Translations under genes and position numbers: made by a program
Source: Candidatus Annandia pinicola
GTDB taxonomy: Bacteria > Pseudomonadota > Gammaproteobacteria > Enterobacterales > Enterobacteriaceae_A
Length of the DNA stretch: 32,000 nt
NCBI RefSeq assembly: GCF_020541245.1
Contig: NZ_CP045876.1
Location: 240,001 to 272,000, forward strand
Direction: 5' to 3'
Notes under the pieces: generated by a model
Databases searched by the model: none
What the model saw: only the letters and a program-made list of their open reading frames with translations
Told to the model about the DNA's origin: nothing
Part shown: piece after piece, positions 15,667 through 29,611 of the stretch
Layout of the letters: every line of letters starts with the position of its first letter
How positions within the stretch are numbered: the first letter of the stretch is position 1

Positions 15667-15792
15667 AAAATATATATATATTTTAAATAATCATTATATT
15701 AATATCCAATTTAATTTATTTTTTTTATAATATAATAATTAAAATTAATTTAATTTATTATATTTTATTAAAAAATTAAAAATAATAAAACT

Positions 15793-17388
15793 ATGAAAAA
15801 AAAAATAATAAAAATATATAAAAAAATCATAAATAAAAAAAAAACAAAAAAAAAAAAAATACTATCTTTAAAAAAATATATTAATAATTCTAAAAAATAT
15901 ATTGATCCTATTAATTTATACATGAAAGAAATGGGGGCCATGGGATTATTAAATAGAGATGGAGAAATAAAAATATCAAAACAATTAGAAGCTGGTTATA
16001 ATAAAATTTATAATGTTTTTATTATATTTCCTAAAGTTATGATTTATTTAGTTAATAATTTTATTAGAATTAATAAAAAAAAACTTAAAATGAGTAGCTT
16101 AATATACTATTTTATAAAAAAAAAACCTAATATTTATAGAACTAAAAATAAAATTTATAAAAATGATAAATTAATTACAAATGGTAATGAAATATCAAAA
16201 AAATTTTTAAAATTAATAAGAAAATATATAAATAGTTATAGTTTAATAAAAAAAAACTTTAATATTTTTGAATATGAAGAAGAAAAAATTAGAAATTTAT
16301 CTTTTTTATTTTCAAGTTTCAAATTTTCTCAAAAACATTTAAGTTATTTAGTTAAATATATTAAAGATATTATTGAAAAAACTAAGCTACAAATATCTAT
16401 TTTAACTAATATTTGTATTGTAAAATGTAAAATGCCTAAAAGATATTTTAAAAAAATATTTGATAAAGAATATAATCATAATTGGGTAAATAAAATTAAA
16501 AAAAGAAAAACAAAATGGGCTAAAAAATTATTTAATTATTATAATGAAATAAAAAAATGTATTAATGAAATATTATCTATTGAAAAAGAAACAAAACTTA
16601 AAGCATTACAAATAATATTTATTGGTAGAAAAACTTTTATTAATAATATAAGAGTTATTATTATAAAAAATCGTATGATAGAATCAAATTTACGTTTAGT
16701 AATTTCTATTGCAAAAAAATATACAAATAAGGGTTTAAGATTTTTAGATGTTATACAAGAAGGTAATATTGGGTTAATGAAATCAGTTGATAAATTTGAA
16801 TACCGAAAAGGATATAAATTTTCTACTTATTCTACATGGTGGATTCGTCAAGCAATAACAAGAGCTATAGCTGATCAAGCTAGAACCATTAGAATACCTG
16901 TACACATGGTTGAAAACATTAATAAATTAAAAAGAATATCCAAAGCTAAATCTCAAATATTAGGTAGAAAACCATCTTTAGAAGAATTAAGTGAAGATAT
17001 GTCAATGAGTATAAAAAAAATAAAACATATATTAGAAATATCTAGAGAACCAGTTTCTATAAATGCTCCGATTTCAAATGGAGAAAATAATAATGCAGCT
17101 TTAGGTGATTTTATAAAGGATAAAACTACTAAATTACCTATAGAATCAGCTACTGAATCAAATTTAAAAGAAATAATTGAATCATTATTATTAGGATTAA
17201 CTTCAAGAGAAGCGAAAGTATTACGTATGAGATTTGGTATAGGAATGAATTGTCAATATACTTTAGAACAAGTTGGTAAACAATTTAATGTTACTAGAGA
17301 AAGAATACGTCAAATTGAAGCAAAAGCTTTAATAAAGTTAAGACATCCTAGTAGATCTTTAATATTAAAATCTTTTTTAGAAGATTAA
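15793..17388 (+). CDS. rpoD: RNA polymerase sigma-70 factor lacking region 1.1
   Basis: 531 aa. Regions 1.2 ([11 protein letters not shown]), 2 ([60 protein letters not shown]), 3 and 4 ([33 protein letters not shown]) are E. coli-like. An in-frame TAA at 15769-15771 blocks any N-terminal extension. Confidence 0.95.
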
Positions 17389-17988: not shown

Positions 17989-18315
17989 ATGAAAAATATT
18001 AGAAAAAAATTATGTGATATTATATTAAATCATGAATTTAATTGTTTAGATAACTATAAAGAACAAGAAAAAAAAGAAGAAAAAAAAGAAGATATTATTG
18101 GTCTTTTATTAAAGTTTTTAGACTATTTTAAAAAAAATAAAGAAAATAAAAATGAAGATAAGTATATTTATATTAATAAAAAATATTTAGATTACAAATT
18201 AAAATATTTTGAAACTTTTACTTTTAATATTAAACATAAAAATAGAATTATTAAATCAATTTTAAGATCAGAAAGTTTATATTATTATTATTACCATAAT
18301 ATTGATGTCATATAG
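17989..18315 (+). CDS. Hypothetical protein, 108 aa, with no family that I recognise
   Basis: It does not overlap any other gene, lies on the same strand as its neighbours, and has AGGA 7 nt upstream of the ATG. A 108-codon stop-free run is unlikely by chance at this base composition. The protein is K/E/N/Y-rich with no recognisable motif, and the stop is TAG. It could be a real orphan or a decayed gene remnant. Confidence 0.45.
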   Translation: MKNIRKKLCDIILNHEFNCLDNYKEQEKKEEKKEDIIGLLLKFLDYFKKNKENKNEDKYIYINKKYLDYKLKYFETFTFNIKHKNRIIKSILRSESLYYYYYHNIDVI

Positions 18316-22308: not shown

Positions 22309-23865
22309 TTAAATTATTAAATTATTTTTTAATTGACGCTTTAAATTGTTTAACAAAATTTTATTGTTTTTAGTTTTTTTTATATTTTTTAATAAAAATC
22401 TTATTGCATCAACTTTATTCATAAAACTTAATATTTTTCTTAATAGATATATTTTTTCTAATTCATTACATTTAATTAATAATTCTTCTTTCCTAGTACT
22501 TGATTTAATATAATCTATTGCCGGAAAAACTCTTTTATTAGCTATTTTTCTAGAAAGATGTAATTCCATATTTCCTGTGCCCTTAAATTCTTCGTAGATT
22601 ATTTCATCCATTTTAGAACCTGTTTTAATTAAAATAGTAGCAATAATAGTTAAACTACCTCCTTCTTGAAAATTTCTAGCTGATCCAAAAAATCTTTTAG
22701 GACGATACAAAGAATTTGAATCAACTCCTCCAGTTAAAGTTTTTCCAGAACTTGGAATTATAGAATTATAAGCTCTAGTTAATCTGGTTAAGGAATCTAA
22801 TAATATTACAACATTATTACTATTTTCAACCATTCTTTTTGCTTTTTCAATAATTATTTCTGAAATATGTATATGTTTATATGCTGGTTCATCAAAAGTA
22901 GAATATAATACCTCTCCTTTGATTAATTTTTTCATTTCAGTTACTTCTTCAGGTCTTTCATCTATTAACAATACAATTAAAAAATGATTTTTATAATTAT
23001 AAGAAATACTATCAGCAATATTTTGTAAAAGAATAGTTTTACCTGCTTTTGGGGGAGCAACAATTAAACCTCTTTGGCCATTACCTATAGGAGTTATTAA
23101 ATCTAATATACGAGAAGCTATATTATCATAAATTAGTTTTTTTCTTTTTTCTTTTTTTATTTTTTCTTTTTCTTTTTCTCTTCTTTCTTCTTCTTTTTTT
23201 TTTCTTTTTTCTCTTTCTTCTTCTGTTTCTTCTTTATTTTCTTCTATTTCTTTTTTATTTTCTTCTTTATTTTCTTCTATTTTTTCTTTATTTTCTTCTT
23301 TATTTTCTTCTATTTTTTCTTCTATTTCTTTTTTATTTTCTTCTTTATTTTCTTCTTTATTTTCTTCTATTTTTTCTTTATTTTCTTCTTTTTTTATTTC
23401 TTCTTTTATTTCTCTTTCCATATTTAAATGAAAATTAGGATATAGTGGTACTAAACTATCAAAATCAACTCTTGTAATACTTATTTTTGGTATATTAGAA
23501 TTTATAGTTATAATATCTATTAATGAGAAATAACGTTCATAAAAACCTGGTGGTATAATTTTTCCAATTATCATATCACCTGTTTTTAAACTAAATTTTT
23601 TTATTTTTCTTAATGATATATATATATCATTTATTCCTGAGTAATAATTATTGTATATAGATCTTAAAAAACCAAATTTTAGATTTACTATTTCTATAAT
23701 ACCACTACCTAACATTATAATACCAATTTTAATATTAATTTTAAGCATAAAAAAAATAATTATATACCTGGGAAATAATCTTATTGTTTTATGTTTTATA
23801 TTGATAACAACGTTTAATATTTTCTCTAATCTATTAAATTTTCTTATTCCTACAAAATTGATCAT
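22309..23865 (-). CDS. rho: Transcription termination factor Rho with a large internal E/K-rich insertion
   Basis: 518 aa versus 419 in E. coli. The NTD ([23 protein letters not shown]) and CTD ([75 protein letters not shown]) are collinear with E. coli Rho on both sides of the insertion. Confidence 0.95.
23128..23412 (-). repeat. In-frame imperfect tandem repeat inside rho (pyrimidine-rich on +, GAA/AAA/AAT-rich in the mRNA)
   Basis: Units such as tcttctttattttcttctat recur at least three times on the + strand. They encode reiterated [10 protein letters not shown]-type peptides followed by [29 protein letters not shown]. Confidence 0.9.
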
Positions 23866-25826: not shown

Positions 25827-27659
25827 TTATAAAAATTTTCTTATTGCACCCTTATCAGCACTTGATACAAAATATGAATAATATAATAATGTTTTAGATA
25901 TTTTACGTTTACGATTTAATGGAGTATAAGATAATTTTTTTTTTTTTTTTTCTTTAATTATACGTTTTTTTAAAATATAATCTGATAATTTAACATTAAT
26001 TGACCTATTTGGTATATCAATTTTTATAATATCTTTATTTTTTATTAAAGCAATATTACCTTTATTAGCAGCTTCTGGTGAAATATGACCAATTGATAAA
26101 CCTGAAGTTCCTCCAGAAAATCTACCATCTGTAATTAATGCACAATATTTATCTATTCCCATTGATTTTAAATAAGTTGTTGGATATAACATTTCTTGCA
26201 TTCCTGGACCACCTTTAGGTCCTTCATATCTAATTACAATAACATCTCCTGGTAATATCATTCCAGAAATAATATCTTTAATTGCTAATTCTTGACTATC
26301 GTATACTTTTGCAGGACCTTCAAAATATAACATGTTTTTTTTTACACCAGCAGTTTTTACTATACAACCATTTTGAGCTATATTACCATATAATACAGCT
26401 AAACCACCATCTTGACTAAAAGAAAATTTTTTAGATCTGATACATCCATTTTTAAAATCTAAATCTAATTTTTTCCATTTATTATTTTGTGAAAAAGCTT
26501 TAATATTATGTTTACCTGATGGTTTTGCTTTATACATATTTTTTATATTTTTATCTTTTGTTACTGATATATCATATAATTTTAAGGTTTCTTTTAAACT
26601 ATATCCCAGAATATTAATTACGTTTGTGTTTAATAAATCTATTCTATTTAATTCTCCTAAAATTCTCATTACACCACCAGCTCTATGTACATCTTCCATA
26701 TAAAATTTTTTAGAACTTGGTGAAACTTTGCATAAATGAGGAACTTTTTTAGATAAAATATCAATATCTTTCATATTAAAATTTATTTTTGCTTCTTGAG
26801 CTGCTGCTAATAAATGTAATATAGTATTTGTAGAACCACCCATAGCTATATCTAATGTCATTGCATTTTTAAAAGAATTTAAATTAGCAATATTTCTAGG
26901 TAATACATAACTTTTATTATCTTCATAAAAAAATTTTGATAATTTTACTATTCTTTGCCCAGCATATATAAACATTTTTTTTCTATCAAAATGAGTTGCT
27001 AATAAAGAACCATTACCAGGTAACGATAAACCTAATGCTTCTATTAAACAATTCATAGAATTTGCTGTAAACATTCCTGAACAAGAACCACATGTAGGAC
27101 ATGCAGATTTTTCTATATCAATACTATTATATTTTTTATTTTTTTTAATTTTATTATCATACATTATAGCATCTACTAAATCTAATTTTTTTTTAAAACC
27201 ATTAATATTTAATCTCCCAGATTCCATTGGACCTCCAGATACAAATATAGTTGGAATATTTAATCTTAGAGATGCCATTAACATACCAGGAGTTATTTTA
27301 TCGCAATTAGATATACATACCATTGCATCAACACAATGAGCATTTATCATATATTCTATAGAATCAGCAATTAAATCTCTTGATGGTAAAGAATATAACA
27401 TTCCACTATGCCCCATAGCTATACCGTCATCAATAGCTATAGTATTAAATTCTTTTGCAACACCACCACAATTATTAATTTGTTGAGATACTATTAAACC
27501 TACATCACGTAAATGAATATGTCCTGGAACAAATTGAGTAAAAGAATTAACTACTGCAATTATAGGTTTATCAAAATCATTATCTTTCATTCCTGTTGCA
27601 CGCCATAAAGCTCTAGCACCTGATCCTTTTTTAGAAGTATTAGAACGATACTGTATCAT
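25827..27659 (-). CDS. ilvD: Dihydroxy-acid dehydratase
   Basis: 610 aa. It has [39 protein letters not shown] and [22 protein letters not shown], and is collinear with E. coli IlvD. Confidence 0.96.
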
Positions 27660-27958: not shown

Positions 27959-29611
27959 TTAATATTCTATCATATCTGTATTACTTACACCAGGTGGTAC
28001 TAAAGGCCATACATTATCATATTTATCAATTGATACATGTAGTAAGTAAGATTTTTTAGTTTTAAAAAATATTTTTAATGATTTTTTTATTTCTTTAGTT
28101 TTACTAATATTTTTACCTTCAATATTAAATGAGTCGGCTAATTTTATAAAATCGGGATTATCATCAAGATTAGTTTCACTATATCTACTAAAAAAAAATA
28201 ATTCTTGCCATTGTCTAACCATTCCTAATCTTCTATTATCTAATAATAAAATTTTAATTGGTAAATTATATCTTTTTATAGTATTTAATTCTTGTATATT
28301 CATTATAAATGAACCATCTCCAGTTATACAAATTACTGTTTTTTTAGGTTTAGCAATTTGTGCTCCAATTGCTGATGGTATACCAAACCCCATACTGCCT
28401 AAACCACTAGAAGAAATAAATTCTTTATTATAATAGAATTCTATATGTTGAGCTACCCACATTTGATGTTGACCAACATCTGTAGTAATAATTGTATTTT
28501 TAGGTTTAATTTCTGATAATTTTTTTAATAAATAAGGAGCCCATATTTTTTTTAAATTATTTTTATAGTTATAACCATATCTTTTTTTAAGTAAAATTAT
28601 TTTATTTTGCCATTTACTAATATTAATTTTTATTGTTAACATGGGTAATATATTATTTAAATCACCACATAAATATAAATTAGCATTACGAACCTTGTTA
28701 ATTTCAGAAAAATCAATATCTAAATGAATAACATTAGCTAAATTAGCAAAATTTTTTAAATTTCCAGTTACTCTGTCATCAAATCTAGATCCAATTGCTA
28801 TTAATAAATCACATTCTTGTACTGCTAAATTAGCAGATTGATTACCATGCATTCCAATCATACCAAGATAATATTTACTATGATATGAGTTTATTACACC
28901 TATTCCTTTTAAAGTTACTACTGTAGGAATACCTGTAATTTTTATAAATTTTTTAAATGAATTAATTGCTTTAGCTATACCTATACCACCACCTGCATAT
29001 ATAATAGGTTTTTTTGATTTTTTTATTAAAAAAATTATTTTTTTTAAAATTTTTTTATTATAAAAAAAATTTTTTTTATTTTTTTTTTTTTTTTTTTTAA
29101 TATTTTTAATATTAATTTTACTTAATTGTATATCCTTAGGTATATCTATTAATATTGGACCTGGTCTACCTATTTTAGATATTTCAAATGATTTATTAAT
29201 AATTAATGACATTTTATCAATTGAATTTATTAAAAAACTATGTTTAGTACAAGATAAAGAAAGACTAATCATATCAACTTCTTGAAATGCATCACTACCT
29301 ATTAAATTAGATGAAACTTGACCTGTAATAGCTATTATAGGAACAGAATCTATAAATGCATCAGATAAACCTGTAATAAGATTTGTAGCCCCGGGTCCAG
29401 AAGTAACAATACAAACTCCTATTTTATTGGTAGATCTAGCATATCCAATTGCTGACATAATTACTCCCTGTTCATGTCTGCATAATATATGTTTAATATT
29501 GCTTTTATATATAGCATCATATACAGGCATTATTGCACCTCCAGGATAACCAAACACAACTTCTACACCTAATCTAGATAATTTATGAATAAGATATTGT
29601 GCTCCTATCAT
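27959..29611 (-). CDS. ilvG: Acetolactate synthase II large subunit
   Basis: 550 aa. The N-terminus MIGAQYLIHKLSRLGVEVVFGYPGGAIMPVYDAIY, CRHEQG, the ThDP motif GDGSFIMNIQEL, and the C-terminus LLHVSIDKYDNVWPLVPPGVSNTDMIEY match E. coli IlvG specifically, including its end LLHVSIDELENVWPLVPPGASNSEMLEK. Confidence 0.9.
   Translation of the reverse strand: MIGAQYLIHKLSRLGVEVVFGYPGGAIMPVYDAIYKSNIKHILCRHEQGVIMSAIGYARSTNKIGVCIVTSGPGATNLITGLSDAFIDSVPIIAITGQVSSNLIGSDAFQEVDMISLSLSCTKHSFLINSIDKMSLIINKSFEISKIGRPGPILIDIPKDIQLSKINIKNIKKKKKKNKKNFFYNKKILKKIIFLIKKSKKPIIYAGGGIGIAKAINSFKKFIKITGIPTVVTLKGIGVINSYHSKYYLGMIGMHGNQSANLAVQECDLLIAIGSRFDDRVTGNLKNFANLANVIHLDIDFSEINKVRNANLYLCGDLNNILPMLTIKINISKWQNKIILLKKRYGYNYKNNLKKIWAPYLLKKLSEIKPKNTIITTDVGQHQMWVAQHIEFYYNKEFISSSGLGSMGFGIPSAIGAQIAKPKKTVICITGDGSFIMNIQELNTIKRYNLPIKILLLDNRRLGMVRQWQELFFFSRYSETNLDDNPDFIKLADSFNIEGKNISKTKEIKKSLKIFFKTKKSYLLHVSIDKYDNVWPLVPPGVSNTDMIEY
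29079..29098 (-). repeat. 20-nt homopolymer (T on +, A in ilvG mRNA) encoding KKKKKKN
   Basis: I counted this directly in the sequence: t at 29079-29098, with an a at 29078 separating it from a further run of 8 T at 29070-29077. Confidence 0.95.

Follow-up and report, generated by a model that had tools for sequence, protein, structure and literature searches.

A tandem-repeat insert rich in glutamate and lysine in the connector of Rho from Candidatus Annandia pinicola, probably expanded by slippage from a poly(A) tract

In the atypical forms of the transcription termination factor Rho described so far (Moreira et al. 2024, PMC11347177), the additional regions precede the N-terminal domain (NTD), separate the N-terminal helix bundle from the RNA-binding domain or follow the ATPase domain. 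These regions are phylum-wide and several of them are functional; among the 2730 genomes of that survey, no additional region of more than 25 amino acids was found between the RNA-binding and ATPase domains. We describe such a region in a window of 32,000 nucleotides (RefSeq contig NZ_CP045876.1, positions 240,001 to 272,000) of the 348,580-bp genome of Candidatus Annandia pinicola, obtained from the adelgid Pineus similis (Dial et al. 2021, PMC8857208; P. strobi preprint, bioRxiv 10.64898/2026.08.10.743978). The rho gene of the window (positions 22309–23865, minus strand) encodes a protein of 518 amino acids in which 94 residues rich in glutamate and lysine (E/K; residues 152–245, positions 23131–23412, minus strand) stand in place of the G150-N-G152 hinge of the connector between the NTD and the C-terminal domain (CTD). 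No atypical Rho type described to date has an insert at this position, as a preliminary description of the locus, made from the letters of the window, had suspected. We conclude that the insert probably arose recently and in this lineage alone, when slippage expanded an ancestral connector of oligo-lysine coded by poly(A), and it is predicted to be translated and tolerated. The IlvC of the window is 100% identical to the ketol-acid reductoisomerase of A. pinicola, and its DapF, Ssb and TrxA equal proteins of that genome record letter for letter. Neither of the two Annandia genome papers mentions rho, termination or repeats.

In form, the insert resembles that of Type 2 Rho (insertion region/NID; Actinomycetota, Bacteroidota and some Bacillota; PMC11347177), being a large, compositionally extreme, probably non-globular in-frame segment in a protein with a conserved core. 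Its location differs from that of Type 2, as it follows the RNA-binding domain (residues 54–125) and precedes the ATPase domain (residue 252 onward), and unlike the known regions it is found in one symbiont lineage only. The site itself has been studied in Escherichia coli, where the substitutions G150D and G152D at the junction of the connector and alpha-6 make Rho termination-defective and bicyclomycin-hypersensitive and drive it into inactive filaments (Hu & Artsimovitch 2017, PMC5449661; PMC11829017). The phage inhibitor Psu contacts Rho residues 139–153 (PMC5449661, PMC11829017), and the connector region is therefore surface-exposed. In A. pinicola, the same hinge is altered and acidic residues are likewise brought in, but while the E. 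coli changes are point substitutions with termination defects and filaments, the A. pinicola protein has had its entire hinge replaced and has gained 94 residues, and its gene is still subject to purifying selection. At the DNA level, the closest parallel comes from the homopolymers of Buchnera and Blochmannia, where poly(A) tracts are indel hotspots in AT-rich endosymbiont genomes (e.g., PMC3268670, PMC3017870). As in those genomes, a sense-strand poly(A)/oligo-lysine tract in an essential gene varies in length between close relatives, and long runs endanger the reading frame. The usual result there is an indel of 1–2 nt or a frameshift, whereas the Annandia tract would have grown to a 282-nt minisatellite coding for a mixed-charge peptide.

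In a phmmer search against the PDB, the protein aligned with E. coli Rho structures (E ~1e-143) in two collinear blocks (query residues 27–152 to E. coli 25–150 and 247–510 to 155–418), and the gap between these, the composition and the segment length define the insert with a boundary uncertainty of 1–3 residues. Within that margin, the preliminary description had been right in reporting an insertion of some 95 residues at 23128–23412 in a protein collinear with E. coli Rho on both sides, and its hand count of about three-quarters E plus K agrees with the exact composition of E 40, K 29, I 9, N 9, R 5, T 1 and L 1 (E+K 73.4%, E+K+R 78.7%). The proximal part is a tandem array (residues 152–212, positions 23230–23412, minus strand; net charge approximately −11), delimited by repeat periods, perfect duplications and a net charge per residue (NCPR) of −0.18; the distal part is an ER/K-like segment (residues 213–245, positions 23131–23229, minus strand; net charge approximately +5), delimited by alignment, a fraction of charged residues (FCR) of 0.88, an NCPR of +0.15 and a helix predicted by AlphaFold2 (AF2). 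Glutamate is always coded by GAA and lysine always by AAA, and A makes up 76% of the coding strand; within the array each amino acid has a single codon, and the variants of the unit, E, K, N and I, are one-base changes apart. Tandem Repeats Finder gave periods of 45 nt (5.7 copies, score 284), 33 nt and 12 nt (24 copies), the score of 284 being by far the highest in the window (runner-up 105). Perfect duplications of 48, 42, 38 and 35 nt lie inside the array, every one at an offset divisible by 3. The short tandem units noted earlier in the DNA are confirmed. The array has the features of a coding minisatellite, with units in multiples of 3 nt in near-identical copies, length variation among relatives and a simple-sequence seed.

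Compared with the other open reading frames (ORFs) of the window, which contain 4.2% E and 13.2% K, the probability of at least 40 E in 94 residues is ~4e-30, and the most charged stretch of 30 amino acids reaches 93% in the Rho insert vs. at most 57% in every other ORF. The insert is explained neither by chance nor by plain AT bias. We also considered an RNA element or an opposite-strand gene beneath it and rejected both: Rfam gave four tRNAs only, no plus-strand ORF covers the insert, and there is no excess of promoters or terminators.

We aligned the 120 best Rho homologues, a set comprising free-living Gammaproteobacteria and many tiny-genome symbionts (e.g., Buchnera, Purcelliella, Makana and Dasytiphilus), and measured the affected segment from the conserved Glu (E. 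coli E148) to the Arg of the RVLDL motif. In 117 of the 120, its length is exactly 11 amino acids; the exceptions have 10, 17 and, in Annandia adelgestsuga, 12, while the window Rho has 101. Together with the literature survey, this comparison supports the novelty of the connector position. When the window Rho is added to the 120 homologues, 112 of the 121 sequences have Gly-Asn-Gly in the segment, and the hinge (E. coli G150/G152) is lost in all three Annandia lineages discussed below. The view of the connector as a permissive linker, offered in the preliminary description, needs correction: in other Gammaproteobacteria the segment is an invariant 11 amino acids with GNG, and G150D and G152D inactivate E. 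coli Rho. Permissiveness of the connector would be peculiar to Annandia and would date from after the replacement of the hinge by lysines. Among the 120 homologues, the 17-amino-acid connector belongs to a Rho of 425 amino acids from the Logan assemblies and is rich in N, D and S (FNNNIDSDFNSNADLTP). A 542-amino-acid Rho from ENA was considered as a second long Rho and rejected, as its last ~120 residues are duplicated, probably by an assembly artefact, and its connector is a normal GNGSTED.

The origin of the insert is best seen by comparison with two other Annandia lineages. In the Rho of A. adelgestsuga (423 amino acids), the site reads RLFME-IKKKKIKK-DITSRILDL, coded by ATT + 13 A + TT + 6 A + GAT, and the distal end of the insert, IKKEKRKK, aligns with this connector IKKKKIKK. 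From this it follows that the common Annandia ancestor already had a poly(A)-coded oligo-lysine connector in place of the Gly hinge. The third lineage came to light in the Logan assemblies of two independent read sets, SRR33594955 and SRR33594997, when proteins clustering with IlvC and DapF at 90% identity were looked up. It differs from the window by a synonymous divergence (dS) of 0.15–0.31, with Rho identities of 87% (NTD) and 90% (CTD). In each run, the locus is split into two contigs, one containing ilvD-ilvC-trxA and the first 164–165 codons of rho and the other the last 286 codons of rho, then dapF and, in one sample, ssb and typA. The 5′ contig ends with HLNME KKK II RR I KKKKKK within a run of 21 A and then TAA, whereas the 3′ contig starts with 22 A, then TAATTAATG, and reads KKKKKKK II NEN ITSRILDL. 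The last 24 nt of the former equal nt 2–25 of the latter, including the non-A bases TAA, and the break is the same in both samples. The parsimonious reading of these sequences is a single poly(A) run of ~21–23 nt, at which variation in run length broke the assembly graph (k = 31), and a connector of ~23 amino acids that would be free of the E/K array. When the contigs are joined, Rho has 443 or 444 amino acids if the run is 20 or 23 nt long, and the assembled 21-nt variant is out of frame; expression of rho in this lineage may hinge on the true length of the run or on polymerase slippage. A search for Annandia-specific NTD motifs in a contig collection returned only an unrelated Ignavibacteria locus, and the collection seems to lack Annandia genomes.

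The connector segments thereby form a series of 11 amino acids (canonical), 12 (13-A run), ~23 (21–23-A run) and 101 (window), and the large array appears to be private to the lineage of the window. This agrees with the slippage alternative raised in the preliminary description, since the sister lineages carry a poly(A)/oligo-lysine tract of 12 and ~23 amino acids at the site and the window carries a young in-frame minisatellite. Raw material for such changes is plentiful: sense-strand poly(A) runs of 12–20 nt that code for oligo-lysine are found in 12 window genes in 32 kb, including those at 29079–29098 (ilvG/I), 25935–25951 (ilvD) and 75–90 (dnaE) and nine more. We propose that the Gly-Asn-Gly hinge was swapped in the Annandia ancestor for an oligo-lysine stretch on a poly(A) run and that, in the lineage of the P. 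similis symbiont, a few A-to-G and A-to-T changes in the tract may have given rise to GAA, AAT and ATA codons. The tract would then have reached 282 nt through the amplification of 12-, 33- and 45-nt units by replication slippage or unequal recombination. Survival was presumably limited to in-frame lengths, both other frames being rich in stop codons (10 in the +1 frame and 8 in the +2 frame of the insert) and Rho being still required; selection on an essential rho together with these stops accounts for the fact that only in-frame unit lengths are seen. The product would be a translated, highly charged polyampholyte, probably helical or extended, that projects from the surface-exposed junction of the connector and alpha-6, and any effect would fall on the step that the E. 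coli hinge governs, in which ring closure is coupled to the occupancy of the NTD. An insert of this kind is most likely neutral or slightly deleterious and less likely an adaptive spacer. Its origin is ordinary, and we see no evidence of a function or of a new mechanism.

Several observations weigh against this account. Glutamate makes up 43% of the insert vs. 4.2% of the other proteins, which exceeds simple AT drift, and a founder GAA unit with later amplification is therefore needed. The comparison covers three lineages, and the adjacency of the two contigs of the third, although parsimonious, falls short of proof. The window assembly was made from short reads only, and the copy number of the array rests on it. 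The array interrupts a long homopolymer, and the interruption itself could be advantageous. Finally, the long helices predicted by AlphaFold would leave room for a structured element within the insert.

The short-read assembly raises the question of whether the array or its copy number was mis-built during assembly, gap padding or polishing, the true connector being short and K-rich. The genome of the P. similis symbiont is indeed Illumina-only (SPAdes -meta, SSPACE, GapPadder, Pilon), A-rich low-complexity repeats assemble poorly, and the Logan assemblies of the relative are broken at the homologous site. A contig of that relative also begins at the ilvG/I poly(A) run, which confirms that such tracts break short-read assemblies. 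In addition, the exact Rho protein of 518 amino acids is missing from a collection of 15 billion proteins in which DapF (UDG80465.1) and TrxA (UDG80467.1) of the same record are present. However, the longest exact repeat of 48 nt is far below the k-mers used (up to 127), making the array resolvable in principle, the frame is open over 282 nt despite stop-filled alternatives, where a random mis-join would seldom keep it, and at both its edges the array gives a sensible alignment with the connectors of the relatives. We therefore hold an assembly artefact to be improbable. The exact protein may be missing for other reasons: it may be flagged as a pseudogene, annotated with another start codon or left out of the collection.

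The rest of the protein is under constraint. We assigned the gene from its uninterrupted ORF, its Pfam, NCBIfam and PDB matches and the synteny ilvG/I-ilvD-ilvC-trxA-rho-dapF-ssb-typA, which is shared by the window and A. adelgestsuga. The protein passes the cut-offs of both NCBIfam equivalog models, scoring 540.7 bits against NF006886 (cut-off 315) and 531.9 against TIGR00767 (cut-off 509.45). The primary RNA-binding OB-fold domain (residues 54–125, positions 23491–23706, minus strand; Pfam PF07497, Rho_RNA_bind, E = 9e-20) retains all residues of the primary site with its C-specific pocket, F62, F64, R66, D78, Y80, E108, R109 and Y110. In the RecA-type ATPase core (residues 252–456, positions 22498–23112, minus strand; Pfam PF00006, ATP-synt_ab, E = 2e-24), Walker A and B, the catalytic E211, R212, the Arg valve R269, the Q-loop, the R-loop and the Arg finger R366 are intact. 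The earlier observation that the frame is kept and the catalytic blocks are preserved holds on both counts. The N-terminal helix-bundle region is diverged (residues 1–47, positions 23725–23865, minus strand): it is collinear with E. coli Rho and has low-confidence AF2 helices at 4–9, 13–22 and 33–44, but the Pfam domain Rho_N (PF07498) was matched neither in the window Rho nor in that of A. adelgestsuga, whereas other tiny-genome endosymbiont Rho proteins retain it, and the basic ARMRKQD motif is replaced by a hydrophobic IRLFPRY. Two residues of the NusG pocket are also altered (V203F and I382L).

Measured against the close relative, the ratio of nonsynonymous to synonymous substitution rates (dN/dS) is 0.145 in the CTD of Rho and 0.35 in the NTD, in comparison with 0.10–0.39 in seven neighbouring genes. 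A relative-rate test between the insert-bearing and the insert-free Rho, with A. adelgestsuga as the outgroup, showed the NTD to have 5 vs. 6 unique changes (P = 0.76) and the CTD 10 vs. 5 (P = 0.20), and thus no acceleration or correlated change in the insert-bearing Rho. The preliminary description had reasoned that a close relative lacking the insert, with no correlated change elsewhere in Rho, would mark a neutral slippage product, and such a relative has now been found. These numbers also bear on the possibility that rho is decaying and that the insert is an early step of pseudogenization in a tiny, C-poor genome. The loss of the GNG hinge, the undetectable Rho_N, the NusG-pocket changes and the NTD ratio all fit such decay, and some small AT-rich genomes are known to have no Rho (Moreira et al. 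2024, PMC11347177). However, the CTD ratio is as low as that of ilvD (0.161) and below that of ilvC (0.205), the ORF is unbroken with scores exceeding the curated cut-offs, the catalytic and RNA-binding residues are all intact, and the rate is not raised relative to the insert-free Rho. The pattern of substitutions thus points to purifying selection on the RNA-binding and ATPase machinery, and pseudogenization appears unlikely, to a degree that leaves it very little probability.

ER/K single alpha-helix (SAH) domains occur in eukaryotic myosins, caldesmon and related proteins, and AF2 over-predicts helices for SAH-like sequences. The insert is like these domains in its E+K+R content of 79% (the criterion being ~75% or more), in having no hydrophobic seam and in its AlphaFold helix. 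It differs from them in lacking i to i+4 E–K enrichment and a 7–8-residue periodicity, in having N at every fourth position proximally and in not being conserved among orthologues. The full-length AlphaFold model, based on an alignment of 50 sequences, is poor (predicted local distance difference test score, pLDDT, 54; predicted template-modelling score, pTM, 0.35); within the insert it has helices at 154–196 (pLDDT 45–67) and 215–246 (pLDDT 63–79) with a break at 197–214. A single-sequence AF2 model of residues 140–260 is one continuous helix with a pLDDT of 91.7, but as it turns the native loop and strand flanks helical too, it over-predicts helix here. The models support a helical propensity of the insert and do not predict plain disorder. 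The check on helicity proposed in the preliminary description, a weak test, is in this respect passed, whereas the charge pattern of a SAH is missing.

We quantified that pattern as the pairing of opposite charges at i/i+3 and i/i+4. The insert gave −0.06 per residue (z = −0.7 vs. shuffles) and its distal 33 residues +0.09 (z = 0.4), compared with 1.35 (z = 7.0) for an E4K4 control. The main charge period, 3.8 amino acids, is that of the EENK unit and puts residues of like charge four positions apart (i and i+4), and the charge power in the 6–9.5-amino-acid band shows no excess and is below the shuffle mean. As the pairing equals that of shuffles and no SAH-band periodicity is seen, a SAH role of the insert is unsupported, and the rigid ER/K spacer cannot be upheld as first stated. 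The insert is instead a strong and well-mixed polyampholyte (FCR 0.79, NCPR −0.06, kappa 0.07, net charge −6) with an acidic proximal and a basic distal half. A coiled coil was also considered and rejected: hydrophobic residues occur once per ~4–29 positions at irregular spacings (4, 9, 15, 4, 11, 11 and 29), with no heptad pattern. Geometry would set a further limit. The ends of the insert rejoin in a short loop, and a rigid rod of 14 nm would be expected to tear the NTD crown off the ring, while a protruding flexible arm or hairpin would be compatible with a working hexamer.

The insert could still be a functional charged arm or spacer of one or two E/K helices, perhaps folded as an acidic-basic hairpin, that alters the coupling between the crown and ring closure or adds an interaction surface and adapts Rho to a transcriptome nearly without C-rich rut sites. 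The predicted helices, FCR and kappa values typical of an expanded polyampholyte, the opposite charges of the two halves and the preserved reading frame are compatible with this, and the site is the very hinge at which G150D and G152D block ring closure and give filaments in E. coli. The scarcity of C-rich rut sites surmised in the preliminary description is also real: the sense RNAs contain 7.9% C vs. 12.1% G, and among windows of 80 nt only 7 of 2679 have at least 20% C and more C than G. Sense RNAs are, however, equally C-poor in the Annandia lineages without the insert. The insert is missing from a relative with a ~90% identical Rho that shows neither compensating nor faster change, the charge pairing and periodicity are not those of a SAH, and the single-sequence model exaggerates helix in the native flanks. 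The net negative charge would argue against a compensatory RNA-binding role, and the perfect 48-nt repeats indicate an array too young for selection on its sequence. On balance, we regard a functional arm as unlikely. The longest A run within the insert is 10 nt, in comparison with 13 nt in A. adelgestsuga and 21–23 nt in the closer relative, and selection may be conceived more broadly, as acting either on a hinge arm or hairpin that retunes Rho or on a slippage-proofed replacement of a hazardous poly(A) run of 20 or more nt, in which G/T interruptions guard the frame. A selected element of either kind seems to us quite unlikely. If true, a selected E/K array would be the first described case of an insertion with a function between the RNA-binding and ATPase domains of Rho.

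The slippage expansion that we favour is informative in its own right. The locus is a natural experiment on the Rho connector, as a hinge was lost and 94 residues were gained in a Rho that is still under purifying selection; this suggests that the role of the connector depends on context or that the Annandia Rho works in a relaxed mode. The insert adds to the catalogue of atypical Rho proteins a position not found in the 2730-genome survey, and the three-step series of a 13-A run, a ~22-A run and a 282-nt array illustrates how poly(A) tracts may grow into new protein segments in tiny AT-rich genomes.

Other genes of the window, which has a G+C content of about 19%, show lysine-rich or repetitive stretches. 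RpoD (positions 15793–17388) matches its profile from model position 96 onward only and has a lysine-rich N terminus, which suggests that its region 1.1 may have been lost or replaced; a quasi-poly(A) repeat lies by rpoD at 15778–15861. Between a TIGR00645-family gene and typA, an ORF of 108 amino acids (positions 17989–18315) has no NCBIfam match, and A. adelgestsuga has an ORF of 102 amino acids without a Pfam match at the equivalent position. The 108-amino-acid ORF includes a short EQEKKEEKKE stretch and a perfect 12-nt repeat at 18065–18092.

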